From Bryobacterales bacterium (GTDB lineage Bacteria > Acidobacteriota > Terriglobia > Bryobacterales > UBA6623): a DNA stretch of 64,000 bases. Each line of letters begins with the position of its first letter. The first letter of the stretch is position 1. The stretch is from contig JAPPLB010000150.1 of the NCBI GenBank assembly GCA_028819575.1, positions 8,683 through 72,682 on the forward strand, given 5' to 3'. The notes beneath the pieces were generated by a model. That model did not search any database. It saw only the letters and a program-made list of their open reading frames with translations, and was not told where the DNA came from. Shown here in pieces: positions 1,352 through 61,137 of this stretch. The position numbers were made by a program, and so were the translations under genes.

Positions 1352-2824
1352 CTAGTGATCGCCCGGCCGGTCTCGTTTTTTCTTGATGTCGATATTGAGG
1401 CGCTGGATTTTCTGATTCAGAGTCGACAGGGCGACGCGCAGACGGCGGGCGCACTCGGTCTGGTTCCAGCCGGACTTCTCCAGTTCCTGGGTAATGAGCC
1501 GACGCTCGAATTCTTCAACGATTTCCGGCAGGCTGGCGCCTTCGGCGGGCTTGACGTCGGTCGGGATATGCAGCCTGCGGATACCGTTGGCCTCCAGCAG
1601 CGACTGGGGCAGCATTTCCACCGGGACCTCGGGTCCGGTGGCGAGGACTACGGCCCGCTCGACTACGTTCTCGAGCTCACGGACGTTGCCCGGCCATTTG
1701 TGGTTCAGCAGGATTTGCAGGGCCTCGGACGCGAAACGGAGCTCCGACTGTTTGCGGTTGTTCAGGAAGCACTCATTCTCCAGGCAGTACTTCGTGAAGA
1801 AGTGGTCGATCAGCAGCGGGATGTCTTCCCGCCGCTCGCGCAGCGGCGGAAGATCGATCTGAATGACATTGAGCCGGTAATAGAGGTCTTCGCGGAACTC
1901 TCCCCTGGCCACCAACTCGGTCAGGTCGACGTTGGTGGCGGCCACGATGCGAACATCGACTTGAACCATGTTGGTCGAGCCAAGCGGCATGAACTCCCGC
2001 TCTTGAATGACGCGCAGCAGTTTGGCTTGCGTCTCCAGCCCGAGAGTGCCGACTTCGTCCAGGAAAAGCGTCCCGCCGTTGGCGCGGTCAAAGCAACCCT
2101 TCTGAGTTTGCGTGGCGCCGGTGAAGGCGCCGCGGACGTGTCCGAACAACCGGGATTCCAGCAAGTCGACAGGGATGGCGCCCGTGTTGACGGCGACGAA
2201 TGGACCATCGGCGCGCGGAGAATGAGAGTGGATGGCGTGCGAGATGAGTTCCTTGCCGGTTCCGCTTTCGCCGTGCACCAGGATTGTCGTGCGACTCTTG
2301 GCGACCTGAGTGACCAGCTCGAAGACACGCCGCATTTCCTCGGACTTGCCGATCAGGTTTCCGAAACTGTAGCGCCTGCGCAGAGCCTCTCGAAGGGCCG
2401 TGTTTTCCTGCTCGAGGCGGCTTTGCCTGATCGCCTGCTCGATCTCGAGCAGCAGCTTGGCATTATTCCAGGGCTTGGTGAGGAAATCGTTCGCGCCTCT
2501 CTTGATCGCCTGGACGGCGTTTTCGACGGACCCGTAGGCCGTAAGCATCAGGATGGGAATTTCCGCATTCGTACGGCGGACTTCCTCGACGACTTCCAGA
2601 CCACTGCGGTCGGGGAGCATCAGGTCGAGCAGGACCAGATCAAAAAACTCGTCCTTGAGCGCGGTGACGCCCTCACCGCCGGACTCGGCCATCGCGGTCG
2701 AATAGCCTTCGAGTTGGAGGAGAGTGTCGAGGCTCTCACGGATCGCCTCTTCGTCATCGACAATCAGGATGCGGCCTTTTGTCGTGACTGCTGCCTCAGC
2801 GACCGTTACCCGGCTGGCCTGCAT
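1352..2824 (-). CDS. sigma-54-dependent two-component response regulator (NtrC family)
   Basis: Receiver domain (RILIVDDEE...DLVLLDLMLPD), AAA+ sigma-54 activator core (GESGTGKE, GAFTGA-type loop as GAFTGAT) and a C-terminal Fis-type HTH. Confidence 0.92.
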   Translation of the reverse strand: MQASRVTVAEAAVTTKGRILIVDDEEAIRESLDTLLQLEGYSTAMAESGGEGVTALKDEFFDLVLLDLMLPDRSGLEVVEEVRRTNAEIPILMLTAYGSVENAVQAIKRGANDFLTKPWNNAKLLLEIEQAIRQSRLEQENTALREALRRRYSFGNLIGKSEEMRRVFELVTQVAKSRTTILVHGESGTGKELISHAIHSHSPRADGPFVAVNTGAIPVDLLESRLFGHVRGAFTGATQTQKGCFDRANGGTLFLDEVGTLGLETQAKLLRVIQEREFMPLGSTNMVQVDVRIVAATNVDLTELVARGEFREDLYYRLNVIQIDLPPLRERREDIPLLIDHFFTKYCLENECFLNNRKQSELRFASEALQILLNHKWPGNVRELENVVERAVVLATGPEVPVEMLPQSLLEANGIRRLHIPTDVKPAEGASLPEIVEEFERRLITQELEKSGWNQTECARRLRVALSTLNQKIQRLNIDIKKKRDRPGDH

Positions 2825-2945
2825 TTCTCACCACCGACAGCCGAAGCACGCGAAAAAGGCCGTGTTTCGTGTCTCGTGTCTCGTGATTCGTGAAAAACCA
2901 TAAAGGCCCTGTTGCGGGCGCCTTTTCCCTCCGCCCCGAGCGGAT
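2818..2945. repeat. truncated copy of the mosaic MITE-like element (one TIR, heptad array, partial module A)
   Basis: CCTGCATTTCTCACCAC followed by ...GTGTTTCGTGTCTCGTGTCTCGTGATTCGTG... It fills the HK-RR spacer and contains the RR start codon. Confidence 0.8.
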
Positions 2946-3004
2946 CATACAAGCGCGAAACATCCGGATCGGTGTCAACACCGCTTGCCCCGGAGGATTT
3001 CACA

Positions 3005-5971
3005 TCAGGCATGAATCGGCTTGGCCGCCACCGGAATCTCCACGATGAAAGTGGAGCCTTCACCGGGGCGGCTGTCCACCGTTATGGTACCGGAATGTTC
3101 CTGAATGATTCCGTAGCTGACGGCCAAACCCAGGCCGGTCCCACTCTTGGGACCTTTGGTCGTGAAGAAAGGATCGAAGACATGCCGTGCCTGGTCGGCG
3201 GTCATGCCCGAGCCCGTATCCCGGATTGAAACGCAGGCCATGCCGCCCCGCTCGATCGTGCTGACGATCAGCCGTCCGCCGTCCGGCATGGCATCGCGCG
3301 CATTGAGGATGAGATTGAGGAAGACCTGTTGCAGTTGTCCGGCGTTGCCGAGCACGCCGGATGCTTCAGGCAATAGATTCTTCTCGACCGAGATATGCCC
3401 CTGGCGAAGCTGAGGCGTGACCATCTCGAGGGTTTCGTTGATGGTGCGCGATAGATCGAGCGTCGTCTTCTCGCTGCCCGAGGTCCTTGAGAAGTTGAGC
3501 AGCGAGTTCACGATCTCGCTGGCACGGAAGGTTTGCGAGGTGATTTTGTCAAGAATCTCGGCAGTCCTGGGAGTTTCGGAAACCTGGCGAGCCAAGATTT
3601 GGGCATAACTGGAGATGACGGCCAGCGGCGTATTGACTTCATGCGCCACGCCGGCCGCGAGCAGTCCGATCGAGCTGAGCTTCTCGGCCTGGATCAGTTG
3701 ATTCTCAAGAACCGAGTGTTCGGTGACATCGTCGAAGATGATCAAGCGGCCGATGCGTTCGAACGTCTTTGTGACGAGAGGGGCCACGACGATGTTCAAC
3801 ACGCGCTCCTGGTCGTCGTGGCCGGAATCAGGCCGAAACTCGACGGGGAAGTCGCTTGCGCGGAGACGGAACTTGTACAAGTTCTTGAGGCCGGTGTCCT
3901 CGCGGATCTTGTTCAACTCAGTGACCAGCCTGGCGGGCAGCAACTCGTTCAGCCGCCGCCCCGACGCTTGCTGGCGAGAGATGCCGAACATCAGCTCCAG
4001 GGGGGTGTTCCAACTTCCCACACGGCCGTCAAGATCCGTTGCGGAGATGCCCACGCTCAAAGACTCGACAATGTTCTCGCTGTAGTCCTTGAGGCGCTCA
4101 TATTGCCGCGCCTTGCGGTCGAGGGATTCATGAAGCCGCGCATTCTCGATCGCGATCGCCAGGTAGCCCGACAAGGCTCGAACCAAAGCAATGTCTTCCG
4201 AGTTCAGAAACTGCCCGTCGCGAGTGCGCCCCAGCCCCAGATAAGCAATCGTCCGGCCCTTGACGCGGCAGGGAACATAGTCATTGAGGTCGAGGTCGAC
4301 AAGGGCCGACCGATACGGCGCCAATGCGGAGGGGGGTTGCCCGGCATCTTCGATGTGCAAGTGAGCACCGGCGTCGTTCGACGCCAGCGCGTGGTCCGCA
4401 AGAAACCGCGTGTTCGCGGCCTCGGCCACCCGCTCGAGCCCAACGGCCTTGACGAGCCGGAAGCTGCGGTCTCCAGTGGGCCCCTTCGCGAGGTCGGGCA
4501 CAAAAACGGCGACTTTCTTCAGGCGCAGGGTCTTTACGAGGCGGTCCGTGACCGAATCCAACGTCTTGTCCAGATCGGTCTCGGTGGTGAGCGCTGCGGC
4601 GAAGCCGGAGAGCGTCCGGCGCGAATCGTAGCGATCTCGGTAATGGCGCCGGTCAATTCGGGTCTGGATCCATGACCGCAAAGGCTGGAAGGCCAAGGCG
4701 CCGCCAAACACGGAGACGACCCAGACGGCCGGGCCGAAACCTTCGGCGCTCAAAATCGTCCCGCTCCATGCGAAGAGCAAACCATAGGCGGCGGCCAGCA
4801 ACCCCGACGCGGCCAGTGAAGCAGCCGTCACACGGCGCGCAAAAAGCTCGACGTCCATCAATCGATATCGAACGATGGCGTAAGCGAACGTCAGCGGAAT
4901 CAATCCCAGAGAGAAGACAGACAGCGTCTGGCTGGGGCTCGGAACTTGCCCGGCGACATACGGCGCAAGGTAGAAAACCGCGAAGGGCAGGGTACCCCAA
5001 AGAGAACCCATGGCCAGCCATCTTCGTTGTTGCCGCAGAATCGGTTCTTCGGTGCGGCCGGTCTGCCTTCGCAAGATCAGCGCTCCGACGATGAAGTAAA
5101 CGCCATAAAGGCCGAAGGCGATGCGATCCAACAGGAAACGCACTTCGACCAGCGGCAATGTGAACTCCAAGGCGCCGAGCGCGACAAGGTGCTGCACGAC
5201 ACCCAACCCCAATACCGGCAGGTAGAGCGCGCCTGAGGCCCAGCGGCGCCGGCGCGACGTTTTCCCGGCGTCCGGGAAGGTCAGACAGAAATGAAGGAAC
5301 AACGAGGGCGCCAGCAGCGTAGCCCAGACATCGGTCCAGTAAACAAGACGGTCCAGGCCGTCGAGGCGAGTCGTGTAGCTGAAGCAATGGAGAACAAACG
5401 AGACCAGGGTAAAGAGGAAAAAATGATGGACCATCGGCCCGGCTACGCGGGACAAAAGGACTGTCAGCCCAATAGCTAGGTAGGCCAGACCGACGATCCA
5501 TTGAAAGGAGGAGGCAACCCCACCCTCAGGCGCGGCTCCGACGATGACGCGGGTCTCGAATCGAGTGCCCGCCCGCTCGATGACATACGTCGCCTGCCTC
5601 CAGACCCCAATCCGGGCAAGCGTACGCGCCACATCCAGCGCTTCATCGATGGTGGAAGAGTCGATCCGTACGAGCCGGTCGCCTGCATGAATGCCTGCCT
5701 GCGCGCCCGGACCCTCGAGCTCGACGCGCAGTGACTCGACCCCTGCGGGCCGGTCGATCCAGGTGACGCCGTCGTGCGGCAACTGGAAATCACTACGGTC
5801 GGCGAGGTTCAGCAGGGCGATCAAGACGCAGGCCGCCGTGGCCAGCAGAAGCAGGCCGGTGACCGCTCGGGATGTCGTGCTCTTACTCACCTTCGTCTTC
5901 GAATCCATGGCCGGAGCCGCGCGGAGACATAACTCAACCCCAAAACGCAGACCATGGAGGTCATTTCCCAT
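3005..5971 (-). CDS. membrane sensor histidine kinase with periplasmic PDZ, polytopic membrane region, GAF/PAS, HisKA and HATPase_c domains
   Basis: PDZ-like segment GPGAQAGIHAGDRLVRID, multiple hydrophobic helices, H-box AAGVAHEVNTPLAVI, and N/G boxes (NLILNARDAM, DTGSGM, GTGLGLAVS). An alternative start is the ATG at 5908. Confidence 0.9.
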   Translation of the reverse strand: MGNDLHGLRFGVELCLRAAPAMDSKTKVSKSTTSRAVTGLLLLATAACVLIALLNLADRSDFQLPHDGVTWIDRPAGVESLRVELEGPGAQAGIHAGDRLVRIDSSTIDEALDVARTLARIGVWRQATYVIERAGTRFETRVIVGAAPEGGVASSFQWIVGLAYLAIGLTVLLSRVAGPMVHHFFLFTLVSFVLHCFSYTTRLDGLDRLVYWTDVWATLLAPSLFLHFCLTFPDAGKTSRRRRWASGALYLPVLGLGVVQHLVALGALEFTLPLVEVRFLLDRIAFGLYGVYFIVGALILRRQTGRTEEPILRQQRRWLAMGSLWGTLPFAVFYLAPYVAGQVPSPSQTLSVFSLGLIPLTFAYAIVRYRLMDVELFARRVTAASLAASGLLAAAYGLLFAWSGTILSAEGFGPAVWVVSVFGGALAFQPLRSWIQTRIDRRHYRDRYDSRRTLSGFAAALTTETDLDKTLDSVTDRLVKTLRLKKVAVFVPDLAKGPTGDRSFRLVKAVGLERVAEAANTRFLADHALASNDAGAHLHIEDAGQPPSALAPYRSALVDLDLNDYVPCRVKGRTIAYLGLGRTRDGQFLNSEDIALVRALSGYLAIAIENARLHESLDRKARQYERLKDYSENIVESLSVGISATDLDGRVGSWNTPLELMFGISRQQASGRRLNELLPARLVTELNKIREDTGLKNLYKFRLRASDFPVEFRPDSGHDDQERVLNIVVAPLVTKTFERIGRLIIFDDVTEHSVLENQLIQAEKLSSIGLLAAGVAHEVNTPLAVISSYAQILARQVSETPRTAEILDKITSQTFRASEIVNSLLNFSRTSGSEKTTLDLSRTINETLEMVTPQLRQGHISVEKNLLPEASGVLGNAGQLQQVFLNLILNARDAMPDGGRLIVSTIERGGMACVSIRDTGSGMTADQARHVFDPFFTTKGPKSGTGLGLAVSYGIIQEHSGTITVDSRPGEGSTFIVEIPVAAKPIHA

Positions 5972-6317
5972 GGAGCACGTTCGCTGCCAAACGCGGTCTA
6001 TGGCGGAGGGCGTCTAAATGCTTGAAAAACGATAGTGTATCGGTATTTCTCGAAGCTGCCGAAAGAGTTCCCGGTGCAGGAATCCCGTTTCTGGAAGCCG
6101 AGCCTGTGAATCCTGGGATAATTCGGCATGGCATGCCCCTTCCGTTCGGGCTGTGCACGGGGCATTCTCATCATCGACAGCGGAGGACGTTGATCGAGTC
6201 TTGTTCGGGCAGGCACGGAATCAACCCTGACCCGCATTCTTCCGCAAAGCCCGGTTCAATCGTGCGGCCGCGCTCTCGACCGGTCTCCCTGAAGCGTGCG
6301 CAAAGCGCTGAAACCGG

Positions 6318-6463
6318 CCTGCATAAAAAAGGCTGTGATTCGTGTTTCGTGCCTCGTGATTCATGAAAACCTAAAAACAGTGGCTAGTGGCTAGTGAAAG
6401 CCTTGAAAGCCCTGATTCGTGATGCGCACGGACTTCGCCTCGTTGCCTGGCGAGAAATGCAAG
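6318..6463. repeat. degenerate copy of the mosaic MITE-like element (heptads plus CAGTGGCTAGTGGCTAGTGA module)
   Basis: Ends are CCTGCAT... and ...CGAGAAATGCAAGC. The internal sequence is the reverse complement of modules seen at 49440-49500. Confidence 0.7.
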
Positions 6464-6645
6464 CTGTTGAAACTAATTGGACGACTCAGCCGTACCGTCC
6501 CTTGCAGGGCAGGTGAGGCAGAGTGTGTTTTTGTTCACCAAGATTTACTTGACGCGCCCTGGCAAGGTAGCTAGAATCGAGGCTAGAATATTGCGGTAGA
6601 AATCCGTCCGGTCGAAGCGCCGGCCCGAACACGGTCCGTTTAGAG

Positions 6646-8307
6646 GTGGCTATGCGGCGAATGCTCATTGTTGGTTGGCTTGTTGTTTTCATCGCTCTCG
6701 GTTTCACTCCCTCGTTGGTTGAAGGAGCCGAGGGGGAGGAGCCGCGGCAACTCTCGAAGAAGGAAGAGAAGAAACGACTGAAGCAGCTTCAAGACGAGTT
6801 GCGCGGACCCTTCAGGAAGTGGATGCGTGAAGATGTCCGCTACATCCTGACGTCGGAAGAAAGAAAGGCTTTTGTTCGTCTGACGACGGACGAGGAGCGT
6901 GAGAACTTCATCGAGCAGTTCTGGCTGCGGCGAGACCCCACTCCCGACACGCAAGAGAACGAATACCGGGAAGAGCACTACCGGCGGATCGCCTACTCCA
7001 ACGAGCGGTACGCATCAGGCATTCCCGGCTGGAGGACCGACCGCGGCCGCATCTACATCACCTTCGGTCCTCCCGACGAGATCGAATCGCACCCCTCCGG
7101 AGGGATGTACCAGAGACCGTATGAGGAAGGCGGCGGAATGACCTCGACCTACCCCTTCGAGATCTGGCGCTATCGCTGGATCGAGGGTGTCGGCCAGGAC
7201 GTATTGATTGAATTCGTAGATCCCACGATGACAGGCGAGTACCGCATGACGTTGGATCCCTCTGAAAAGGACGCCCTGCTCTACGTGCCGGGCGCTGGCC
7301 TCACGCTCGCCGAGCAGATGGGGCTCTCGGAAAAACGCGACCGCTTCATGCGCAGCGACGGCACCCGCATGGGCACTCCGATCGGCGGTGCGGTGTCGAT
7401 GCGTTACAACCAGTTCGAACGACTGCAACGATGGGCCGCTCTGCAGAAACCTCCTGAGATCAAGTTCAAGGATCTCGAGGCCGTCGTTGACTCCAGCATT
7501 GAATACAACACCTTGCCGGTTCGGATCGAGGTGCAATATACGCGGATCACGAACGAGAATATTCTGGCCGGAGTATCGGTTCAGTTGGATAACAAGGACC
7601 TGGTCTTCCGCGAAGAAGACGGACGGCACAAGGCGATCGTCAACATCTACGGCCGCGTGACGACGATGACCCGTCGCGTGGCGGCGATCTTCGAAGACGT
7701 GGTCACCGTGGATACCACCACGGAACGGCTTCCGTACGAGTCTGAACGATCAGCGCTCTACCAGAAACCATTGATTCTGGTGCCGGGGATGTATCGCCTG
7801 GAAGTCGTCTCGAAAGACGTGGTCGGCGAGACCATGAGTACCTATCGCACGGCGCTCGAGGTCCCGCAGTACGACGACGAGCGACTGGCGTCGAGCACGT
7901 TGATTCTGGCGGACCGCATCGAGCGTGTCCCGATGCGGTCACTCGGTCTGGGCCAGTTCGTGATCGGCAGCTCGAAAGTGCGCCCGCGCATCAACGAGGA
8001 GTTCAAGCAGGATGAGCGCCTGGGCATCTACCTGCAGGTTTACAACCTGGGCGAGGACGACTCGAGTTCGGAACCCAAAGGCAGCGTGACCTACCAAGTC
8101 GCACGCCTCGATCAGCCGGATGAATTGCTGTTGGACTTCACCGAGCCGATCAGTCAGATTCGCGGCGCCACTTCGAAGCAGATGATCGTGGAGAAGTTGT
8201 TGCCGCTCAAGACGTTGGATCCGGGAGAATACCGGCTTAGCCTGAGAGTGAACGATTCCATCAGGAACGAAACCCTAACACCATCGACAACGTTCAGGGT
8301 CAGGTAG
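6646..8307 (+). CDS. GWxTD domain-containing secreted protein
   Basis: N-terminal signal-like helix and the literal motif GWRTDRGRIYITFGPPDEIESHP. Confidence 0.85.
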   Translation: MAMRRMLIVGWLVVFIALGFTPSLVEGAEGEEPRQLSKKEEKKRLKQLQDELRGPFRKWMREDVRYILTSEERKAFVRLTTDEERENFIEQFWLRRDPTPDTQENEYREEHYRRIAYSNERYASGIPGWRTDRGRIYITFGPPDEIESHPSGGMYQRPYEEGGGMTSTYPFEIWRYRWIEGVGQDVLIEFVDPTMTGEYRMTLDPSEKDALLYVPGAGLTLAEQMGLSEKRDRFMRSDGTRMGTPIGGAVSMRYNQFERLQRWAALQKPPEIKFKDLEAVVDSSIEYNTLPVRIEVQYTRITNENILAGVSVQLDNKDLVFREEDGRHKAIVNIYGRVTTMTRRVAAIFEDVVTVDTTTERLPYESERSALYQKPLILVPGMYRLEVVSKDVVGETMSTYRTALEVPQYDDERLASSTLILADRIERVPMRSLGLGQFVIGSSKVRPRINEEFKQDERLGIYLQVYNLGEDDSSSEPKGSVTYQVARLDQPDELLLDFTEPISQIRGATSKQMIVEKLLPLKTLDPGEYRLSLRVNDSIRNETLTPSTTFRVR

Positions 8308-8341
8308 GCGGCCGCCGGAACGAACAGCAAAGCCCAACCCC

Positions 8342-10150: not shown

Positions 10151-10183
10151 CACTGAGCTCATTCCGAGGCCGCTGAAGAAGTC

Positions 10184-10595: not shown

Positions 10596-11201
10596 ATGCG
10601 TCTTTTTGCAGCTCTTGAACTGGACACCAAAGTCATTGCCAATCTCACCGAGTTGGTGCACCGTCTCCGACCCTGCGGAGCGATTTACTGGAGCCATCCC
10701 CAGAGCATGCATCTCACGTTGAAATATATCGGCGACTGGGCTGTGCATCGGGTGGACGTACTCGTACAGGCCCTGCAGCGTGTCAAGGTGCCGCCTTCCC
10801 TCAGCGTGCCTCTGGCCGGTTTGGGCTTCTTCCCCAACCCCCGGAACCCGAAAGTCTTCTGGGCCGGCGCCGAGAATACACCCGCGCTCCGCCGATTGGC
10901 GAGCAGTGTAGACAGCGAGTTGCAGATGCTTGGCATCGCTCCGGAAATCCGTCCGTATTTCCCACACCTCACACTCGGACGCGTCGTCGAGGGCGCCCAA
11001 CTTGACGAGTTGTACCGGAGCGTAGAAGATCTGCCGAGCCGCGAGTTCGGAGCCATATCGCCGGACCGCTTCGTGCTGTTCGAAAGCACGTTGGCGAACG
11101 GCGGGTCGATGTATCGAAAAGTGGCTGAGTTCCCGTTCACCAATGGCGCTACCCCGGTTGACGAGCCCGAGACCGCGCAGCCGGTCGGAGCCGGCAGTTA
11201 G
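10596..11201 (+). CDS. thpR: RNA 2',3'-cyclic phosphodiesterase (2H phosphoesterase, ThpR/LigT)
   Basis: Two HxTx motifs (HLTLKY and HLTLGR) at the expected spacing. Size is about 200 aa. Confidence 0.85.
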   Translation: MRLFAALELDTKVIANLTELVHRLRPCGAIYWSHPQSMHLTLKYIGDWAVHRVDVLVQALQRVKVPPSLSVPLAGLGFFPNPRNPKVFWAGAENTPALRRLASSVDSELQMLGIAPEIRPYFPHLTLGRVVEGAQLDELYRSVEDLPSREFGAISPDRFVLFESTLANGGSMYRKVAEFPFTNGATPVDEPETAQPVGAGS

Positions 11202-11499
11202 CCTGCATTTCTCACCACCCGACGGCCCAAGCACGCGATAACAGGCCGTGATTCGTGACTCGTGATTCGTGAGCCCAAAACCCAGGCAGGCGTTACGACC
11301 GTCGCTCATGGGCGTCATTTGTTACGCTTGCGTGCCGTTCTCCATGGGGTAAAGGCCGTGTTGCGTGTCTCGTAACCCGAGGGCCGAAGGAGGCGATACG
11401 GCAAGTACGCCTGCGCACGCCTTTTCCTCCGCCCGGCTTGCGCCTCGTCCTGACGGCCCTCTCACGCACTTCGCCTCGCCACGTGGTGAGAAAGGCAGG
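11198..11499. mobile_element. full-length mosaic MITE-like element (302 bp), inverted orientation
   Basis: TIRs are TTAGCCTGCATTTCTCACCAC and GTGGTGAGAAAGGCAGG (1 mismatch). It carries internal heptads and module A. The left TIR contains the thpR stop codon. Confidence 0.85.
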
Positions 11500-28248: not shown

Positions 28249-28898
28249 CGGCGCTGCCTGAACGCCGTTCCTTGAAAGCGGAGTTCCTCCGAGGAATTCA
28301 GCGAAGCCGATGATGCGATTCGAGAACACGGAGTTTCGATACGGATCGGATCGATGACCGCTTCCCGCATCCTGTGGGAGTGCCTGGAGCCGCATCATAT
28401 GCAAGTCCGCAGCGGAATCATTTCTTCCGGCAGGGTCGTTATTCCGGCGCGGGTCTGGAGCAGCCCGCATGGTGAGTGCCTCCTCTGATGCGGAGAAGCA
28501 GGTGGCTGAAAAATGCAAGGTCGGGAGTCTCTGCAACGAAGATGGAGGTCCGCTCGCCTCGCCGCTTATAGTCTTGTCCGGAACCTTTTCCCCTAAAAGA
28601 ACACTGCTTCGTTATCTGGCAGGAGTGGACGGCGGTTCATGGGGGCCAAATGTACGATTTCATACAAGCATTAACTCGTCGATCAACCCGCCTTGGTGCC
28701 CCGCGAAAGTGGCCTCGCGACCGTCAATAGCGCGATTTGCGGGTTATTTATGGTTTCTAGTGCTCCGCCGCTCCGACCTTGCAACCTTTATCGTGTTGGT
28801 GACGTCGTACTGCACTACCGTGGGCCTGTGTCAGAGGGGTTTTCCGTGTTAGCCTTACTTACAGTTCCAGACTGAGTGCCCCTGATGTAGGTATGCTC

Positions 28899-30332
28899 AT
28901 GCAGCGGATCAAGATACTGGCTGCCGTTTTAGGTTTGTTGTTTGCCACCACTGTCTGGTCTCAACAAGACGGAGACAGAGACGGCGGGGCCACCGGTAAC
29001 CCGCCAGGTGGGGCTACCGGCGGCGTGCCGGGTGGGACTGCTGGTGACATACCAGGAGGGGCTGCCGGTGGCTTGCCAGGTGGCCCGCCAGGTGGGGCTA
29101 TTGGCGGTGCGCCAGGGGGCACGACCGGTGGCAGGCCAGAGGGGGCTACCCGTGGCACAACCGGTGACGGTGACCGAGGTAGGGGAAACCGCCCAACCAC
29201 CGAAGATCAGCAGGAAGACATCATCGACCCCTACAGAGAGCAGCAAGAACAGCCGCAGCCATTTCCTCGATCGCAGAACGGGCACCTGCGTCTGCGGCGT
29301 CCGGTCATTCTCAGCGGCAAGGTCATGTTGGGAAACGGCATGACGCCTCCGGAGCCGGTGAGGATTTACGTGGAGTGCGATGGCCGGCGCATGACCACCG
29401 ACTATACCAATAGCAAGGGTGTCTTCAACGTCGATCTTAACAATCCTCAAAACACCTTTCTCGATGCGGGCGTCGGAGGTCCTTGGAAAGGTCACGGAGT
29501 CTGCGTCGACCGGTTTGGGCGAGTCAACCTGTTCGGTTGCCAGCTTTTCGCCGAGTTGGGCGGCTATCGAGCTGATCCGATTCAATTGGTTGCTCGTCGC
29601 AGCATCTTTGACAATCCCGACGTCGGAGCGATAGTCCTGCGACGCTTGGATGGTGTCGATGGTATGTCCATCAGTTACACCAGTCTGTCAGCCCCCGGGA
29701 AGGCCAAAAAAGCCTACGGCAAGGCATTCAGGGAAATGCAGAAGAGGGGACCGGACCTGCAAAAGGCCGAGAAGGAATTGGAGACGGCGGTGGGCTTGCA
29801 CTCCGAATACGCCGCGGCCTGGAACCTGCTGGGCCACGCTCGCCTGATGCAGGGCGACCGGGAACGCGGCCGGGCCGCGTTCGAAAAGGCTGTCGAAGCC
29901 GACCCGAAATTCCTGGATCCCTACCCCGCTCTCGCGCGTCTGGCGCTCGTCGAGGAGCGCTGGGATGATGGCCTGCAATGGTCGAATCAGCTTCTGCGGC
30001 TGAATCCCCACGTTGCGATTTCACATTACTATTCGGCCATTGCCAACTTTCGTTTAGGCCGCATGGAGGCTTCCAAGAAGTCGATGCTCGATCTTCAGGA
30101 GAAAAGCGCCGGCAGAGATTTTCCCCGGTCGCATCAGATCCTCGGTATGATCCATGCTGAACAGGGGCTCTACGAGCAGGCTGCCACATCCTATCGCGAC
30201 TATCTCGCGGTGCAGCCGGACGGGCCTTTCGCTTTACAGATCCAACGTCAACTCCGCGATTGGGAATTGCTGGGGGTGATCCGGAAACAGGAGACCGCCG
30301 CGGCGCCGACCGTCGCCGTCACCCAGGACTGA
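28899..30332 (+). CDS. secreted Gly-rich repeat / beta-sandwich / TPR protein, paralog 1 of 3
   Basis: Conserved start MQRIKIL plus signal peptide. About 70 aa of PGGxxGxx repeats, a CarboxypepD_reg-like unit (LSGKVMLGNGMTPPEPVRIYVECDG) and a C-terminal TPR region. A start 6 nt upstream is possible. Confidence 0.85.
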   Translation: MQRIKILAAVLGLLFATTVWSQQDGDRDGGATGNPPGGATGGVPGGTAGDIPGGAAGGLPGGPPGGAIGGAPGGTTGGRPEGATRGTTGDGDRGRGNRPTTEDQQEDIIDPYREQQEQPQPFPRSQNGHLRLRRPVILSGKVMLGNGMTPPEPVRIYVECDGRRMTTDYTNSKGVFNVDLNNPQNTFLDAGVGGPWKGHGVCVDRFGRVNLFGCQLFAELGGYRADPIQLVARRSIFDNPDVGAIVLRRLDGVDGMSISYTSLSAPGKAKKAYGKAFREMQKRGPDLQKAEKELETAVGLHSEYAAAWNLLGHARLMQGDRERGRAAFEKAVEADPKFLDPYPALARLALVEERWDDGLQWSNQLLRLNPHVAISHYYSAIANFRLGRMEASKKSMLDLQEKSAGRDFPRSHQILGMIHAEQGLYEQAATSYRDYLAVQPDGPFALQIQRQLRDWELLGVIRKQETAAAPTVAVTQD

Positions 30333-30377
30333 CCCGGATATCTCCCAAGCGGTAAGGAGGCGTGTGTGCGACGGTCC

Positions 30378-30510
30378 TCAGTTGGTGAGATATCCAGGCT
30401 CGGTTGATGACCTCGAACCGGTCGGGTTGCCACACATCCATCGCGTCGATCCCTCTCCCTGCAAGCGCGTCAGGTCGACTTCGGATCGTATTCGCCCCGG
30501 TACCGCAACC
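30378..30510. repeat. decayed copy of the VWA gene's 3' end and downstream spacer, carried in the tandem-duplication unit
   Basis: Aligns by eye with 33726-33860, for example ...GATCCCTCTCCCTGCAAGCGCGTCAGGTCGACTT... against ...GGTCCCTCTCCCTGCAGGTGCGTCAGGTTGACTT... Confidence 0.75.
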
Positions 30511-30621
30511 TTTTTGTTGTTGGCGACGTCGTACTGCGCTACCAAAGGCCTTGGTCGGAGGGGGTTTCTGTGAGTGCCTTACTGACAGTTGCAGCCTGAA
30601 TACCCGAAAGGGGGGATGATC

Positions 30622-31875
30622 ATGCAACGGATCAAGATTCTGGCTGCCGTTTTGGGCTTGTTGTTTGCTACGGCTGTCTGGTCTCAACAAGACGGCGGCA
30701 GAGGCAGTGGCGGCACGACCGGCGGCTCTGGCGGCACGACCGGTGGCGGTGGCCGAAGTACGGGAAACCTTCCAACCACCGGCGGTCAGCAGGGACGTAG
30801 TACCTACGACTCCTACCGACGGCAGGACTTGGACCTCCGCAGGCGCCCGTTTTACCTCAGCGGCAAGGTTGTGTTGGCGAACGGCATGACGCCTCCTGAG
30901 CCGGTGAAGGTTTACTTGGATTGCGACGGTCAGCGCCGGCCCGCCGGCTACACCAATTCCAAGGGTACCTTCAGGGTCGATCTCACCGATCGCAACACCC
31001 CCTTTGCCGATGCGAGCATGGGAGGGATGGGGCCACGGCGCGGATTCAGCAGCAGCGGCCTCGGACGAGTCACCCTGTTCGGTTGCCAGCTTCTCGCCGA
31101 GTTGGGCGGCTATCAAGCTGATCCGATTCCGTTTGGTAGTCGCAGCATCTTTGACAATCCCAATGTCGGAACGATGGTCCTGCGACGCTTGGATGGTGTT
31201 GAAGGTATGCCTATCAGTTTCACCAGTCTGTCAGCCCCCAATAAGGCCAGAAAAGCCTACGACAAGGCATTCAGGGAAATGCAGAAGAAAGAGCCGAACC
31301 TGCAAAAGGCCGAGAAGGAATTGGAGACGGTGGTGGGCTTGCACTCCGAATACGCCGCGGCCTGGAATATGCTGGGCCGCGTTCGCATGATGCAGGCCGA
31401 CCGGGAAGGCGGCCGGACCGCGTTCGAGAAGGCTGTCGAAGCCGACCCGAAATACCTCGATCCCTATCCCGATCTCGCACTTCTGGCGCTCACCGAGGAG
31501 CGCTGGGACGATGGCCTGCAGTGGTCGAATCAGCTTCTGCGGCTGAATCCCCACGTTGCGATTGCTCATTATTATTCGGCCATTGCAAACTTTTATTTAG
31601 GCCGGATGGAGGCTTCCAGGAAGTCGGTGCGAGAGCTCAAGGAGAAAAGCGCCGACGGATATTTTCCCCAGTCGCATCTGATCCTCGGCATGATCCATGC
31701 TCAACAGGGGCTCTACGAGCAGGCAGCCATATCCTTCCGCGACTATCTCACGGTGCAGCCGGACGGGCCCGTCGCTTCACAGATCCAACGTCAACTCCAC
31801 GATTGGGAAGTTCTGGGGAAGATCCGGAAACAGGAAGACCCCGGGGCGCCGACCGCGGCCATGCCCCGGAACTGA
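30622..31875 (+). CDS. secreted Gly-rich / beta-sandwich / TPR protein, paralog 2 of 3
   Basis: Same architecture as paralog 1 with a shorter Gly-rich tract. RBS AAAGGGGGG. The conserved upstream 120 nt is also present. Confidence 0.85.
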   Translation: MQRIKILAAVLGLLFATAVWSQQDGGRGSGGTTGGSGGTTGGGGRSTGNLPTTGGQQGRSTYDSYRRQDLDLRRRPFYLSGKVVLANGMTPPEPVKVYLDCDGQRRPAGYTNSKGTFRVDLTDRNTPFADASMGGMGPRRGFSSSGLGRVTLFGCQLLAELGGYQADPIPFGSRSIFDNPNVGTMVLRRLDGVEGMPISFTSLSAPNKARKAYDKAFREMQKKEPNLQKAEKELETVVGLHSEYAAAWNMLGRVRMMQADREGGRTAFEKAVEADPKYLDPYPDLALLALTEERWDDGLQWSNQLLRLNPHVAIAHYYSAIANFYLGRMEASRKSVRELKEKSADGYFPQSHLILGMIHAQQGLYEQAAISFRDYLTVQPDGPVASQIQRQLHDWEVLGKIRKQEDPGAPTAAMPRN

Positions 31876-31920
31876 CCCGGGTATCGCCCAAGCGCCGAGG
31901 AGGAGTGTCTGGGGCGATCC

Positions 31921-32053
31921 TCGGTTGGTGAGATGTCCAAGCTGGGCCAATGACCTCAAACCGGTCGGGTTGACACACATCTACTGTGCCGATCCCTCTC
32001 CCTGCAAGCGCGTCAGGTCGATTTCGGATAGTATTCGCCCCGGTCCCGCAACC
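31921..32053. repeat. second decayed copy of the VWA 3' end and spacer
   Basis: Collinear with 30378-30510 and 33726-33860. Confidence 0.75.
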
Positions 32054-32163
32054 TTTCTGTTGTTGGCGACGCCTTACTGCAAAACCGAAGGCCTTGGTCA
32101 CAGGGGTTTGCTGTGATAGCCTTACTGGCAGTTCCGGCCTGAATACCCGACAGGAGGGTGATC

Positions 32164-33477
32164 ATGCAACGAATCAGGATTCTGGCTACCGTTCTGGGTT
32201 TGTTGTTTACGACGGCTGTCTGGGCTCAACAGACAGGCGGCACTGGCGGTACCACCGGGGGCGCCACCGGTGGCACGACAGGTGGCGGTGGCCGAGGTAG
32301 TACGGGAAACCTCCCGACCACCGGCGGTCAGCAGGGGCGAACCAGCGACCCCTACGGACGGGAGCAACAGCAGATTCCCCAACCGGACTTCAGGCGCCCG
32401 CTGTATCTCAGCGGCAAGGTCGTGTTGGCGAACGGCATGCCGCCTCCGGAGCCGGTGAAGATTTATTTGGATTGCAACGGCCAGCGCCGGCCCGCCGGCT
32501 TCACCAATACCAAGGGCACCTTCAGCGTCGATCTTAACGATCGCAACAACCTCGCGTTTGCCGATGCGAGCGTCCAGGGAGCACCCGTTGGGATAGGGCA
32601 ACAAGGGGGCGGGGGCGGATTCGGCACTGTCGGAACCAACCTTTCTTCTCGCAGCGACGGCCTCGGTCGAGTCAACCTGTTCGGTTGTCAGCTTCTCGCC
32701 GAGTTGGGGGGCTATCAAGCTGACCCGGTTCCTCTGGGTACTCGCAGCGTCTTTGACAACCCCAACATCGGAACGATGGTCATGCAGCGCTTGGATGGAG
32801 TAGAAGGTTCGTCCATCAGTGTCACCAGTCTGTCAGCCCCCAAGAAGGCCAAGAAAGCCTACGACAAGGCCTTCAGGGAGATGCAGAAGAAGGAGCCGAA
32901 CCTGCAAAAGGCCAAAAAAGAGTTGGAGTCGGCGGTGGGTCTGCACTCCGAGTACGCTACGGCCTGGAACCTGCTGGGTCGCATTCGAATGATGCAGGAC
33001 GACCTCGAAGGAGGCCGGGCCGCGTTCGAGAAGGCTGTCGAAGCCGACCCGAAATTCCTGGATCCCTATCCCGCTCTCTCGCGTCTGGCGCTCACTGAGC
33101 AGCGCTGGGACGATGGCCTGCAGTGGTCGAATCAGCTTCTGCGGTTGAATCCCCACGCCTCGATGGCGCATTACTTTTCGGCCATTGCCAACTTCCGTTT
33201 AGGACGGATGGAGGCTTCCAAGAAGTCGGTGATCGAGCTCAAGGAGAAGAATGCCGACAGAGACTTTCCCCAGTCCCATCAGATCCTTGGCATGATCCAT
33301 GCTCAACAGGGGCTCTACGAGCAGGCGGCCACATCCTACCGCGACTATCTCACGGTGCAGCCGGACGGCCCCGCCGCTTCGCAGATCAAACGCCAGCTCC
33401 ACGAATGGGAAATTCTGGGGGTGATCCAGAAAAAGGAAGCCGCGGCGGCGCCGACAGCCGCCGTCCCCCAGAACTGA
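32164..33477 (+). CDS. secreted Gly-rich / beta-sandwich / TPR protein, paralog 3 of 3
   Basis: Same architecture as paralogs 1 and 2. RBS CAGGAGGG lies 5 nt before the ATG. Confidence 0.85.
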   Translation: MQRIRILATVLGLLFTTAVWAQQTGGTGGTTGGATGGTTGGGGRGSTGNLPTTGGQQGRTSDPYGREQQQIPQPDFRRPLYLSGKVVLANGMPPPEPVKIYLDCNGQRRPAGFTNTKGTFSVDLNDRNNLAFADASVQGAPVGIGQQGGGGGFGTVGTNLSSRSDGLGRVNLFGCQLLAELGGYQADPVPLGTRSVFDNPNIGTMVMQRLDGVEGSSISVTSLSAPKKAKKAYDKAFREMQKKEPNLQKAKKELESAVGLHSEYATAWNLLGRIRMMQDDLEGGRAAFEKAVEADPKFLDPYPALSRLALTEQRWDDGLQWSNQLLRLNPHASMAHYFSAIANFRLGRMEASKKSVIELKEKNADRDFPQSHQILGMIHAQQGLYEQAATSYRDYLTVQPDGPAASQIKRQLHEWEILGVIQKKEAAAAPTAAVPQN

Positions 33478-33512
33478 CCTGACTGCTCTCACGTGGCCAG
33501 TCGAGGTGCTTG

Positions 33513-33721
33513 CTAACCTGCATATCTCACCACGTGGCGAGACGAATTGCGTGAGAGGGTCGTCAGGACTAGGCACAAGCCGGGCGGAGGAAAAAGGCGC
33601 GAGCCGCTTGGCGCGCGCAGACGTACTTGAACAGTACGTTGAGCACGGCAAGCAAGCGTAACGAAGTCATGGCGGTCATACCGCGTACTTCGGCCGTCGG
33701 GTGGTGAGAAATGCAGGTTAG
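33513..33721. mobile_element. short (209 bp) mosaic MITE-like element with 21-bp TIRs
   Basis: TIRs are CTAACCTGCATATCTCACCAC and GTGGTGAGAAATGCAGGTTAG. It is absent from the two paralogous spacers. Confidence 0.9.
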
Positions 33722-33817
33722 GGCTTCAGTTTGTGAGATATCCAGGCTGGACCGATGACATCAAACCGATAGGGGTATGCACCACCGGCTACACCGGTCC
33801 CTCTCCCTGCAGGTGCG

Positions 33818-34792
33818 TCAGGTTGACTTGGGGTAGTATCCGGTCCGAGCCTGCACCTTGAGGTTCTTGCGCCGCGTTCGCAAGTTGATTTTGCGAAGCC
33901 CGGCCCCGCTTGAGTTGCTGTCGGGTGAGAAACCGATGCTGTATTGGCTGCGCAGTTCGTTCTGAATCTCATCGAAGATCTGCCGCAGTGTCCGCTTGCG
34001 CGTCACCTCGAAGACGTTGCCGCCGGTTTCCCGCGCCATCTTTTTCAGCGCCCCGGAACCGCCGCCCGCGAAGCCCATCCGGCCATAGTAGAAAGTGCGG
34101 TCGTAGTACCGCACGCCGTACACCACGACATCGGATTTGTGAGCCGCTTCGACCGCCTCCTCGCGATCGACGCGGCTGCCGTAGTCGACGCCGTCGGAGA
34201 TCAGCACAATGGCCTTGCGCCCGACCTGCCCCTGCATCATCTCATCGGAGGCAAGGTACACTGCGTCGTAGAGGGCCGTCCCCACCGGCGGTCCTGAATT
34301 CGGCACAGGTCCGGGATGGATGCCGCGGTTGGCTCCTTCCACTTGCAGGTCTTCGAGAGACCTTTCCAGCAGCTTTTGCGAGCCTGTCAAATCTTGCAGC
34401 AATTCGACATTGACGTCGAAGCTGATCAGGAATGCCAAGTCCTTTTGGAGTCGGAGCACCTGCGAAAAGAATTGGGCGGCGGCCCGCTGCTCTTCGTAGA
34501 TCAGACGTTCCTGGCTGACGCTGGTGTCGACAAGCAGCCCCACCGTGAGTGGCAGGTCCGTCTGTTGAGAGAAGTAGCGAATCTGTTGGCGCTTACCGCC
34601 CTCTTCCAGGATGAAGTCGTCTTTACTGAGGTCCGTGACCAGACCACCCTTGTTGTCGCGTACCGTGGCCAGGAGATTTACGACCTCCACGTCCACCGAG
34701 ATGATCGCTTCTTCCTGGGCTCCGGCCGTTCTGCGCAGCCAGGGGCTCGCTGCGGAAGCCGCAAGCAGGGAGATGGCCCTTCGTCGATGCAT
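33818..34792 (-). CDS. VWA domain protein (acidobacterial VWFA-related family, TIGR03436-like)
   Basis: Signal MHRRRAISLLAASAASPWL, then IISVDVEVVNL...D-x-S-x-S MIDAS-like motif (VGLLVDTSVS)...IVLISDGVD. The ORF can extend to 34858. Confidence 0.8.
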   Translation of the reverse strand: MHRRRAISLLAASAASPWLRRTAGAQEEAIISVDVEVVNLLATVRDNKGGLVTDLSKDDFILEEGGKRQQIRYFSQQTDLPLTVGLLVDTSVSQERLIYEEQRAAAQFFSQVLRLQKDLAFLISFDVNVELLQDLTGSQKLLERSLEDLQVEGANRGIHPGPVPNSGPPVGTALYDAVYLASDEMMQGQVGRKAIVLISDGVDYGSRVDREEAVEAAHKSDVVVYGVRYYDRTFYYGRMGFAGGGSGALKKMARETGGNVFEVTRKRTLRQIFDEIQNELRSQYSIGFSPDSNSSGAGLRKINLRTRRKNLKVQARTGYYPKST

Positions 34793-34902
34793 AACTCTAT
34801 TTCTGGGACGATCAGGCCACGGCGGTGGTTTCCCGGATCCCGAAACGCGGACAGCCATTTCTGATCGAACGACTAAGAATTATCGCAGTTCAGGTCCGAT
34901 AT

Positions 34903-35191
34903 TAGCCTGCATTTCTCACCACGTGGCGAGGCGAAGTGCGTGAGAGGGCCGTCAGGACGAGGCGCGAGCCGGGCGGAGGAAAAAGGCGTGAGCCAAGCGC
35001 ACTTGCCAAATCACTTCCTTCACCCCTCTTGTCACGAAACGCGGCCTTCCCGGTTCACTGGCCGTCAGACATTTCTTCTGGAGCGAACCAGACCCCCTCT
35101 CATGGTTTTCACGAATCACGAAACACGAAACACGAATCACGGCCTTTTTCTCGCGTGCTTCGACCGTCGGGTGGTGAGAAATGCAGGTTAG
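34903..35191. mobile_element. full-length mosaic MITE-like element (289 bp)
   Basis: Perfect 17-bp TIRs CCTGCATTTCTCACCAC / GTGGTGAGAAATGCAGG. Modules A, S and the heptad array are all present. Confidence 0.9.
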
Positions 35192-35323
35192 CCCAAGCCG
35201 CCCGGGGCCGGCACACTCCGCTGCTCGAACCTGACAAGGAGGGGCTCGATCAGTGCCCGAACCCTCCCGCCGAAGATCGGCATCTTGTGTTTCAGTGAAC
35301 GAACGTACGCTTCCCCGCCACCG

Positions 35324-45029: not shown

Positions 45030-45070
45030 TTACCCTGCATTTCTCACCACGTGGCGAGGGATGCAGGTGA
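45030..45070. repeat. collapsed hairpin version of the MITE-like element (two TIRs back to back)
   Basis: TTACCCTGCATTTCTCACCACGTGGCGAGGGATGCAGGTGA. Confidence 0.6.
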
Positions 45071-49398: not shown

Positions 49399-49620
49399 TG
49401 AGCCTGCCTTTCTCACCACGCGGCGAGGCACAGTCCGTGCGGGTCACGAATCAGCGCTTTCCAGGCTTTCACTAGCTACTAGCCACTGCCTTTAAGGTTT
49501 TTACGAAACACGGGACACGAATCACGGCTTTTACGCAAGCAGCTTTGGAGCAACGGCCGTACCGCCTGCTTGGTTTTGGGGTCACGAATCACGAGACACG
49601 AAACACGAATCATGGCTTTT
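49399..49620. repeat. MITE-like element copy with an intact left TIR and a truncated right end
   Basis: GAGCCTGCCTTTCTCACCAC..., the TCACTAGCTACTAGCCACTG module and two heptad arrays. It ends abruptly at the AT-rich vapB promoter. Confidence 0.8.
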
Positions 49621-49634
49621 ATACTTTTATAAGG

Positions 49635-50341: not shown

Positions 50342-50427
50342 GGGTTCATGACTCCGAAGACAGCCGGGCAGGACGAGTCGAACCTTGCGAAGAACCCCGC
50401 AATCGATCTGTTGAAAGCTCTCGGCTA

Positions 50428-50748
50428 CTCCCACGTGCCGCAGGACGAGGCGCGAGCCGGGCGGCGAAAAAAGGCGCGAGCAGTGTACTGGCCGTATCGC
50501 CTCATTCGGCCCTCGGGTTACGAGACACGCCACACGGCCTTTACGGTTCATCGGCCGTCAGACATTTCTTCGGGAGCGAACCAAGCCTCACCGAATGCCT
50601 TTCACGAGACACGAAACACGAGTCACGAATCACGGCTTTTATGCTTTTCACGAATCACGAGACACGAAACACGAATCACGGCTTTTTTTCGAATCACGGC
50701 CTTTTTCCCGCGTGCTTCGATCGTCGGGTGGTGAGAAATGCAGCTTAG
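50428..50748. mobile_element. full-length mosaic MITE-like element (321 bp) with an eroded left TIR and an intact right TIR
   Basis: Contains module A, module S, two heptad arrays and ...CGTCGGGTGGTGAGAAATGCAGCTTAG. Confidence 0.8.
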
Positions 50749-53137: not shown

Positions 53138-53212
53138 GGCCCGTCAGACATTTCTTCTGGAGCGAACCAAGCCCCACCAAATGCATTTCACGAAACACGA
53201 GTCACGAAACGC
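53138..53212. repeat. solo module S plus heptads of the MITE-like family
   Basis: GGCCCGTCAGACATTTCTTCTGGAGCGAACCAAGCC...TTTCACGAAACACGAGTCACGAAAC. Confidence 0.7.
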
Positions 53213-53229
53213 AAACGTTGCATATGGGC

Positions 53230-53253
53230 ACTGAAGCCCTTCAGTCTTTTTTT
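53230..53253 (+). terminator. intrinsic-terminator-like hairpin plus T7 run (ACTGAAGCCCTTCAGTCTTTTTTT) in an intergenic region
   Basis: A 6-bp stem, a 4-nt loop and seven consecutive T. There is no protein gene upstream on the + strand. Confidence 0.4.
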
Positions 53254-53752: not shown

Positions 53753-53885
53753 TCAGCCTGCTTTTCTCACCAAGGGGCGAGGCGAAGTGCGTGAGAGGGC
53801 CGTCAGGACGAGGCGCGCGGCGCAAGCCAGCGCAAGTTCCGAGGTTTTCACGAAACACGAGACACGAAACACGAGACACGGCCTT
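53753..53885. repeat. MITE-like element copy (left TIR, module A, heptads) abutting the start codon of the kinase-deaminase gene
   Basis: TCAGCCTGCTTTTCTCACCAAGGGGCGAGGCGAAGTGCGTGAGAGGGCCGTCAGGACGAGGCG...CACGAAACACGAGACACGAAACACGAGACACGG. Confidence 0.8.
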
Positions 53886-54887: not shown

Positions 54888-54936
54888 GAACGGCGAATCG
54901 AGTTTTCGGAGGCGTCTCGGTGTCAACAGTCGCTGC

Positions 54937-60971: not shown

Positions 60972-61088
60972 AGGGACCGGCTACGAGTAGCATTCGCAGC
61001 GCACCCGCTCCACGGACTCTCGTGAGTCGATAGGAATACTCGATTTCTCGAACTCATACGCACAATTCTTCTTTGTCATTGGCTCGAT

Positions 61089-61137
61089 CTGCCTTTTCTC
61101 ACTTCACCTCGCAGCGCCCTGAGGTGAGAAAAACAGG
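61089..61137. repeat. minimal hairpin relative of the MITE TIRs
   Basis: CTGCCTTTTCTCAC...GTGAGAAAAACAGG. Confidence 0.4.

Follow-up and report, generated by a model that had tools for sequence, protein, structure and literature searches.

The intergenic spacers of a 64,000-nucleotide stretch of Bryobacterales DNA (contig JAPPLB010000150.1 of assembly GCA_028819575.1; this whole stretch is referred to as the window in the following) harbor a family of short palindromic repeats which are recently mobile miniature transposable elements with inverted repeats (MITEs). Judging from the available sequence data, this family is most probably (probability roughly 0.9) mobilized in trans by a DDE transposase of the IS1380 family encoded elsewhere in the genome. 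All five features by which a MITE is recognized at the sequence level were found: small size (below 600 bp) without coding capacity and high copy number, terminal inverted repeats (TIRs), a target duplication of fixed length, insertion polymorphism, and an autonomous element with matching ends. The classification as a non-autonomous transposable element, already proposed in a preliminary description of the window, is supported by copies elsewhere, a partner transposase and the insertion polymorphism. This is a well-documented, ordinary kind of element and current understanding is not overturned by it. Still, the Bryobacterales, soil Acidobacteriota mostly known from metagenome-assembled genomes (MAGs), gain a defined, recently active MITE family along with its likely driver, and MITEs are documented for the IS1380/piggyBac lineage with its 4-bp YTAR target.

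Terminal repeats and target site

The elements are bounded by a terminal 17-mer, CCTGCATTTCTCACCAC, for which 15 matches with at most three mismatches exist in the window (2818, 6447, 11202/11483, 30382, 33517/33701, 34906/35171, 45034/45051, 49403, 50728, 53757, and 61121), compared to 0.16 expected from dinucleotide-preserving shuffles. They belong to about 12 intergenic copies of 34–304 bp in both orientations relative to genes. The terminal sequences are common to the copies and were also recovered by an unbiased repeat search of the window, and those open reading frames (ORFs) overlapping elements that were examined translate only the repeat itself. The preliminary description had listed at least 11 copies adding up to about 1.9 kb; this sum is correct and the matches lie at or beside the coordinates given there, but three 66-bp mini-copies with a variant end (match at 30382) had been left out.

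For comparison, the exact 17-mer was scanned in 185,579 species genomes, yielding at least 99 stretches, mostly from Bryobacterales MAGs. The resulting set of loci (729 kb; individual loci are denoted by L and a number) includes the closed chromosomes OZ242366, OZ241991, and OZ244625 and contains at least 290 TIR matches. Among 103 distinct TIR pairs spaced 100–400 bp apart, the 4 nt outside both ends are identical in 44, versus none of the 103 for the next 4 nt outward. Identical flanks are CTAG in 23 pairs, TTAG in 7, CTAA in 6, and TTAA in 4. The combinations TTAG–TTAG and CTAA–CTAA account for 13 cases without a single inverted combination, and the same holds for all 17 identical non-palindromic flank pairs. 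As non-palindromic flanks are always direct and never inverted, the shared tetranucleotide reflects a duplication rather than a longer inverted repeat. Hence, what the family duplicates, truly and in direct orientation, is 4 bp of YTAR, mostly CTAG, and not TA or TWA as considered earlier. As the stop codons TAG and TAA form part of YTAR, copies are often located exactly at gene ends.

Insertion polymorphism

A presence/absence comparison, one of the checks suggested beforehand, revealed empty sites for three window copies. The copy at 33517–33717 is absent from the orthologous sites in L186 and L187 (flanking VWA protein 98% identical) and L189 (OZ244625, 91%), as well as from the paralogous sequence 3′ of two tandemly duplicated TPR genes within the window, while the older mini-MITE hosting this copy is conserved at all compared orthologous and paralogous sites. 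Similarly, the copy at 34906–35187 is missing in L186, L188, and L189, which carry about 52 bp of unrelated sequence instead. For the copy at 2818, L193 (a 94%-identical ortholog) displays the uninterrupted junction ...CATGCCTAGCCGGG..., into which the window has 187 extra bp inserted exactly at CTAG. This confirms the copy previously noted at 2818, whose extent is now fixed at 2818–3004 by comparison with the empty site. Taken together, the empty orthologous and paralogous sites point to recent insertion.

Master form and distribution

In the 729 kb of loci, TIRs facing each other are most often 176/177 bp apart, a sharp maximum made up of 59 distinct copies, and a smaller maximum lies at 201 bp. 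Almost all columns of the 177-bp consensus exceed 90% conservation, and this consensus folds into a single hairpin of −116.8 kcal/mol with pairing along its whole length. Moreover, the first 66 nt (66/66) and the last 37 nt (37/37) of the window copy at 34903 are 100% identical to this consensus. Based on the length peak, the column conservation and this identity, the near-perfect 177-bp hairpin is the master form of the family. Consequently, the copies of 290–320 bp, formerly regarded as full length, constitute a derived mosaic subfamily (v289) in which one end is retained over about 66 bp and the opposite one over about 36 bp while the core has been replaced; full-length relatives of 77–89% identity occur elsewhere (L038, 89%; L011, 84%; L003, 81%). 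By the same token, the supposed 209-bp deletion form is actually the canonical form carrying a 24-bp internal insertion. Perfect TIRs had been ascribed to two copies, which is true for the one at 34903, whereas those of the 33513 copy agree at 16 of 17 positions.

The element is not restricted to the window, as it recurs with 90–100% identity in at least nine Bryobacterales MAGs. A protein of the window was found on a metagenome scaffold, and Bryobacterales also provide the closest named homologs of window proteins. Furthermore, CCTGCATTTCTCACCAC with a YTAR flank (CTAG, CTAA or TTAG) also bounds short elements of about 66–200 bp with unrelated interiors in other phyla (Table 1). The exact 17-mer and YTAR flanks around unrelated interiors suggest independent MITE families, which the same IS1380 clade has apparently spawned across phyla. 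A scan of viral contigs for the 17-mer gave one irrelevant match only, and a search of the literature for the TIR sequence returned only chance eukaryotic and viral matches. In copies from Singulisphaera, a short repeat, GAGAACAC, immediately follows the TIR.

Three independent assemblies of the VWA gene of the window (L183, L184, L185) end 135–165 bp from the gene, within the flanking MITEs or beside them. Short-read assemblies of these genomes thus seem to be broken up by the family, which explains assembly breaks where contigs with the same gene end inside repeats.

The likely IS1380-family partner

The MITE ends resemble the left end of ISEcp1 (CCTAGATTCTAC...), and use of the ISEcp1 transposase as query led to L001. 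This contig carries a 177-bp MITE (97% identical) at 176–351, followed by CTAG and a 1.7-kb element at 357–2080 with the ends CCCGCATTTCTCACCAG and CTGGTGAGATATCCGGG and CTAG on either side. Its 487-amino-acid ORF scores 388 bits against the NCBIfam IS1380 equivalog model NF033539 (cut-off 180) and matches Pfam DDE_Tnp_1_4 (PF13701) with E = 2.7e-147; the only other NCBIfam match is IS701 with 18.7 bits. From metagenomes, 80 relatives of this transposase with 56–65% identity were fetched (L103–L182). Where ends were found, they read CCCGCATTTCTCAC... (CCCGCATTTCTCACCA) or CCCGGATTTCTCAC..., giving element lengths of mostly 1647–1763 bp; in most cases, one end precedes the start codon by 37–120 bp, and its complement mostly follows the stop codon by 170–280 bp. 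Flanks are again CTAG, TTAG, CTAA, or TTAA and are identical in about half of some 40 pairs. Transposases 87–93% identical to that of L001 are encoded in MITE-bearing Bryobacterales genomes; one of them bears the name 'IS1380 family transposase [Bryobacterales bacterium]', and further ones reside on chromosomes of 6,301,730 and 5,780,619 bp with many MITE copies. Two insertion sequences (ISs) from Bryobacterales (L191, L192) have the arrangement CTAG-CCCGGATATTTCACCAG...CTGGTGAGAAAAGGCGG-CTAG or -CTAA. Ends of partners and MITEs share the consensus CCyGsATTTCTCACCA, and IS ends agree with MITE ends at best in 15–16 of 17 positions next to YTAR flanks (L001, L103–L182, L191, L192). The search for an autonomous element with the same TIRs, as advised in the preliminary description, thus yielded IS1380-family elements that correspond to the MITE in their ends and have an equal target duplication.

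In the mechanism proposed from these data, the transposase would recognize the ends of about 17 bp (CCTGCATTTCTCACCAC / GTGGTGAGAAATGCAGG) and the element would enter a YTAR tetranucleotide (CTAG being preferred over TTAG, CTAA, and TTAA), those 4 bp becoming duplicated, with mobilization probably provided in trans by the IS1380-family enzyme. Mini forms of 34–66 bp may have originated by deletion between the hairpin arms. The long window copies would represent derived subfamilies and decayed fragments, the core of which has been replaced or extended by heptad, S, W, and terminator-like modules, and such mosaics likely arose via nested insertion, slippage, and recombination.

Several observations weigh against this assignment. 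An IS with ends identical to those of the MITE was not found among L001, L103–L182, L191, and L192, and the ISs from MITE-bearing Bryobacterales genomes match at only about 12–13 of 17 positions. Within the part of the MAG covered, i.e., the 64-kb window, no relative of the IS1380-type transposase is present; nor is there a relative of the two IS110-type transposases described below, which agrees with the earlier statement that the window lacks a transposase gene as far as these types are concerned, a general transposase scan of the window ORFs not having been made. The contig L001 itself measures 2.3 kb and was assigned to a Gammaproteobacteria bin, the host being judged from the MITE aboard. 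In addition, many window copies have one recognizable end only or imperfect flanks, and transposition is deduced rather than directly observed.

Other candidates for the autonomous element did not hold. Long TIR-bounded pairs in L016, L030, L078, and L013 turned out to be heptad-array clusters or MITEs with IS110-family insertions, and TIR-like pairs 600–3500 bp apart with identical flanks comprised only neighboring MITEs plus two mid-sized pairs (608 and 713 bp) in the loci. A partner of the IS5 or IS701 type, suspected from the YTAR target, was dropped on finding IS1380 elements with matching ends. A MITE derived from the IS5 family would nevertheless account for the target, as YTAR together with a 4-bp duplication is a hallmark of IS5 (PMC5009759; related IS711, PMC2266754), and the mosaic, palindromic, and intergenic architecture resembles that of BIMEs, i.e., of REP- or REPIN-like elements spread by a RAYT (HUH tyrosine) transposase. 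REP and REPIN elements, however, make no target duplication, and the clear 4-bp duplication excludes the family from REP/BIME. No RAYT or IS5 transposase was found beside copies, RAYT not having been searched for systematically, and the only full-length elements combining both the end sequence and YTAR flanks are of the IS1380 family. Origin from either of these two sources is therefore regarded as highly improbable.

Within the IS1380 family, short direct repeats are made upon insertion, as for IS1247 (1672 bp) with its 5-bp repeat (PMC3281130), whereas exactly 4 bp, preferably CTAG, are duplicated in the present family. The partner elements meet the NCBIfam IS1380 equivalog model of the family that also comprises ISEcp1 and IS1247, and the left end of ISEcp1 and the partner ends both start with CC and are alike (CCTAGATTCTAC... 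vs. CCTGCATTTCTCAC...). For their eukaryotic relative piggyBac, with TTAA as target, IS1380 transposases have been taken as prokaryotic outgroup (PMC10813416); TTAA is included in the YTAR of the partner elements, and the short target duplication is a further likeness. In contrast to the autonomous IS1380 elements, those of the window are non-autonomous and contain no ORF. In the listed papers that name both IS1380 and MITE, neither titles nor opening parts of abstracts connect the two, and no description of IS1380-derived MITEs was found.

Mobile DNA or structured RNA

The long hairpin and the intergenic position of the copies could also be taken to indicate a conserved structured non-coding RNA or a terminator family, in which the hairpin is selected as RNA and the copies are not mobile DNA. 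One central pair (columns 82/98) indeed changes from CG to UA in 8 of 57 copies, although this is most simply explained by shared lineage of those copies. The eleven other pairs with two-sided change are altered in one or two copies each only, most variable pairs are one-sided or broken, and covariation contributes only −1.52 of −70.6 kcal/mol (57 canonical copies); the covariation check recommended for separating a structured RNA from a MITE thus gave no signal of compensatory change. Rfam has no match in the window at the gathering threshold, nor at E ≤ 1 over 3.3 kb in two element-rich stretches, and consensus scans of the elements at 33400–35300 detected no promoter-like or terminator-like site inside. 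The occurrence of copies in both orientations relative to genes likewise speaks against a structured RNA. Since the hairpin is accounted for by inverted terminal repeats, given the duplicated targets, the empty sites and an IS that matches, an RNA family is extremely unlikely.

Relation to known repeat families

Correia/NEMIS elements of Neisseria, RUP of pneumococcus, ERIC, and Nezha of cyanobacteria are small, TIR-bounded, intergenic high-copy repeats with target duplication, which often fold into hairpins, are mobilized in trans, and are able to give regulatory or coding signals to their neighbors. The window family is likewise small, TIR-bounded, intergenic, and of high copy number, but stands apart by its unusually long, near-perfect 177-bp hairpin and its strongly modular subfamilies. 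Its transposase family and its target (4-bp YTAR in place of TA) also differ from those of these families, and the IS1380-type partner and the preference for CTAG likewise distinguish it from IS630-type MITEs. Mosaics of short reusable intergenic modules are known from BIMEs of E. coli, BOX of pneumococcus, and the cyanobacterial STRR. The latter are tandem heptanucleotide repeats and thereby resemble the H, W, and AAAACTA modules in architecture, sequence similarity not being claimed. BIMEs and REPs, in turn, lack duplications and depend on RAYT, whereas TIRs of the transposase type, with target duplications, enclose the mosaics described here.

Individual copies in the window

The individual copies are compiled in Table 1. 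The shuffled internal modules A, H, S, and W reported previously are all present and common to copies in both orientations. Three older 66-bp mini-copies share the variant end CCCGGATATCTC... and include, besides two intact ones, the copy split by the insertion at 33517. They accompany three tandem paralogous TPR-repeat genes (28893–33477; duplication unit of about 1.54 kb, Gly/Thr-rich low-complexity N-terminal repeats). As the same old mini-MITE follows each TPR paralog, its insertion is older than the gene duplication. A short ORF (50348–50440), reading MTPKTAGQDESNLAKNPAIDLLKALGYSHVP..., stops where the 5′-truncated copy starts (50437). It is similar to the N-terminal part of type I restriction R subunits and could represent what insertion and deletion have left of a gene.

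Table 1 Copies of the repeat family in the window, related elements in other phyla, and IS110-family elements associated with the MITE
Location	Strand	Feature	Details
Window 2818–3004	−	187-bp MITE-derived insertion at histidine-kinase/sigma54-regulator junction	B-side TIR 2818–2834; heptad array 2858–2892; far end without recognizable TIR; flanks CTGG (2814–2817) and TCAG (3005–3008), ancestral site CTAG
Window 6318–6465	−	Degenerate copy	Truncated end CCTGCAT 6318–6324; heptads 6338–6365; W module CACTAGC x2 (~6380–6398); decayed A-side TIR 6447–6463, 3 mismatches
Window 11202–11499	−	Complete mosaic copy, 298 bp TIR to TIR	TIRs 11202–11218 and 11483–11499; flanks TTAG and ATAA; TAG of left flank is stop codon of LigT-like gene 10596–11201; 76% identity to 34903 copy over 309 nt
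Window 30333–30398		Older 66-bp mini-MITE	Variant ends CCCGGATATCTCCCAAG...TTGGTGAGATATCCAGG; directly 3′ of stop codon TGA (30330–30332); kept at orthologous site in L189; paralogous copy 31876–31941
Window 33478–33512 and 33722–33746		Older mini-MITE, split	Halves flanking the 33517–33717 copy
Window 33517–33717	+	Canonical type, 177-bp form with 24-bp internal insertion	Flanks CTAA and TTAG; TIRs 16/17; 82% identity to 177-bp consensus over 201 nt; nested in older mini-MITE
Window 34906–35187	+	Complete mosaic copy, v289 subfamily	Perfect 17-bp TIRs; modules A and S; 5 heptads 35110–35144; perfect TTAG/TTAG target duplication (34902–34905, 35188–35191)
Window 45034–45067		34-bp TIR-only hairpin, internally deleted copy	Like 34–39-bp forms elsewhere (L027, L075)
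Window 49403–49622	+	One-ended copy upstream of phd/vapC operon	A-side TIR; W module; heptads 49502–49529 and 49583–49617; no right TIR
Window 50437–50744	+	5′-truncated v289-type copy, first ~45 bp gone	Heptads 50603–50637 and 50649–50683; B-side TIR 50728–50744, then TTAG; 77% identity over 207 nt and 95% over final 59 nt
Window 53141–53250	+	TIR-less fragment	S module; 3 heptads 53189–53209; terminator-like hairpin ACTGAAGCCCTTCAGT, then T-run
Window 53757–53885	+	One-ended copy	A-side TIR (2 mismatches); module A; 5 heptads 53849–53883; adjoins ATG (53886) of kinase/deaminase-like gene
Window 61089–61137		Decayed TIR-like hairpin	CTGCCTTTTCTCAC...GGTGAGAAAAACAGG; 3 mismatches; family membership weak
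L004, L007, L026, L041, L048, L051, L071, L094		17-mer-bounded elements	Verrucomicrobiota
L077, L090, L088, L089		17-mer-bounded elements	Planctomycetota
L042, L057 and others		17-mer-bounded elements	Further MAGs
L030 6395–7833; L074 7336–8000; L066 1–563		IS110-family element in MITE	Pfam DEDD_Tnp_IS110 and Transposase_20
L067 7698–8000		Same IS110 transposase gene	Possible fourth apex copy, junction unchecked
L078 ~6572–7738		Second, different IS110 element	At inner edge of TIR

Heptad arrays and accompanying modules

The H unit, GGTTTT-(CACGAAT CACGAGA CACGAAA CACGAAT CACGGCY)-TTTTT, is well conserved. Defined as at least three tandem CAYGRNN heptads, arrays number 79 in the 729 kb of loci (3–6 heptads each, mode 5), 10 in the window, and 1 in 225 kb of IS1380 loci, compared to none in the reversed-sequence controls. 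In many copies, the array is placed about 40 nt from the B-side TIR with a constant linker in between, which argues that it is an integral part of a transposing subfamily. Arrays farther than 350 bp from any TIR are mixed with module S (GGCCGTCAGACATTTCTTCTGGAGCGAACCAAGCC), with a terminator-like hairpin (ACTGAAGCCCTTCAGT) followed by a T-run, with CCCACGATTT repeats, and with further 7-bp tandem repeats (CACTAGC, CACTATC, and AAAACTA). The preferred target CTAG is found within CACTAGC, the W heptad, which may favor nested insertions. The terminator-like module, GGTACTGAAGCCCTTCAGTCTTTTTTT, and tandem CCCACGATTT repeats recur together with arrays at 53220–53250 of the window and at many loci (L016, L011, L073), as if they, too, were part of a repertoire of modular intergenic repeats.

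The economical reading of the arrays is that of slippage-prone, hitch-hiking modules. A conceivable additional role, compatible with a MITE, would be that the (CACGAAW)n arrays of one subfamily serve as a working protein-binding platform spread through intergenic regions, with the transposase itself, a partition protein, or a regulator of the ribbon-helix-helix type as candidate binders. The arrays are in fact highly non-random and their unit is conserved, and 25 of the 79 are more than 350 bp away from any TIR and mixed with other modules. Moreover, the omega/ParB system of pSM19035 uses arrays of at least four contiguous 7-bp WATCACW repeats as binding sites (PMC9499535), to which the heptad in shifted register, ARWCACG, may be compared, as a lead and not as a test. 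On the other hand, the ten window arrays exhibit no consistent orientation to flanking genes upon reading, a binding protein for the array was not identified from the sequence data, and heptad numbers of 3–6 are as neutral slippage would give. The unrelated 7-bp tandem modules CACTAGC and AAAACTA suggest a general slippage process, too, and a transposase-binding role is unlikely as the ends of the autonomous ISs lack heptad arrays. Overall, a platform function is considered unlikely.

Insertion into an operon overlap

In L193, the stop codon TAG of a histidine kinase gene and the start codon ATG of a sigma54-regulator gene overlap within the 8-bp sequence ATGCCTAG of their operon. In the window (2814–3012, cf. 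L193 520–680), the MITE is located inside this overlap and supplies new stop and start codons, an example of an element landing in an operon stop/start overlap with neither gene destroyed. The kinase now ends at a TGA (3005–3007, minus strand) spanning the insertion edge, with one base contributed by the insertion and two by the right-hand duplication copy. The regulator is predicted to start at an ATG inside the TIR (2822–2824), giving MQASRV... in place of the ancestral MPSRV... of the ortholog. Read outward, the TIR is GGTGGTGAGAAATG and offers a Shine-Dalgarno-like sequence 6 nt before this ATG. The gatB gene in L034 likewise starts at a MITE ATG.

From such junctions, a 'translation-transparent' MITE could be envisaged, in which YTAR acts as stop codon and the outward end GGTGGTGAGAAATGCAGG as Shine-Dalgarno-like sequence plus ATG, so that both signals could be re-supplied at insertion junctions. 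As a general start codon, however, the outward ATG is not accompanied by an excess of long ORFs, those of at least 100 codons numbering 44, 61, and 9 in frames 0, 1, and 2. The combination of a translation-transparent MITE with a heptad-array subfamily delivering a protein-binding platform to many promoters is decidedly unlikely; if true, the family would be a genome-wide rewiring device and not neutral junk.

IS110-family insertions into the MITE

Three copies of the 177-bp MITE (L030, L074, L066) carry an IS110-family element at the identical apex, GTACTGTTCAA-IS-AAGTACG. By eye, about 5 positions in 90 nt distinguish the MITE half in L030 from that in L074, and the aligned stretches of IS plus MITE half are about 99% identical. 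Different MITE halves with the same apex junction argue for site-specific homing. Hence, integration of IS110 into the MITE looks site-specific and is possibly guided by a bridge RNA, a mode of targeting described for this family (PMC11208160), and it parallels the known insertion of IS110-family elements into REP elements (PMC1525189, PMC12288879). Together with the heptad arrays, these MITE-homing elements provide leads for studies on bridge-RNA targeting and protein-DNA interaction. In OZ241991 (L191 238–1143), an IS1380 element and an IS110-family transposase gene are immediate neighbors, suggesting mutual nesting of mobile elements.

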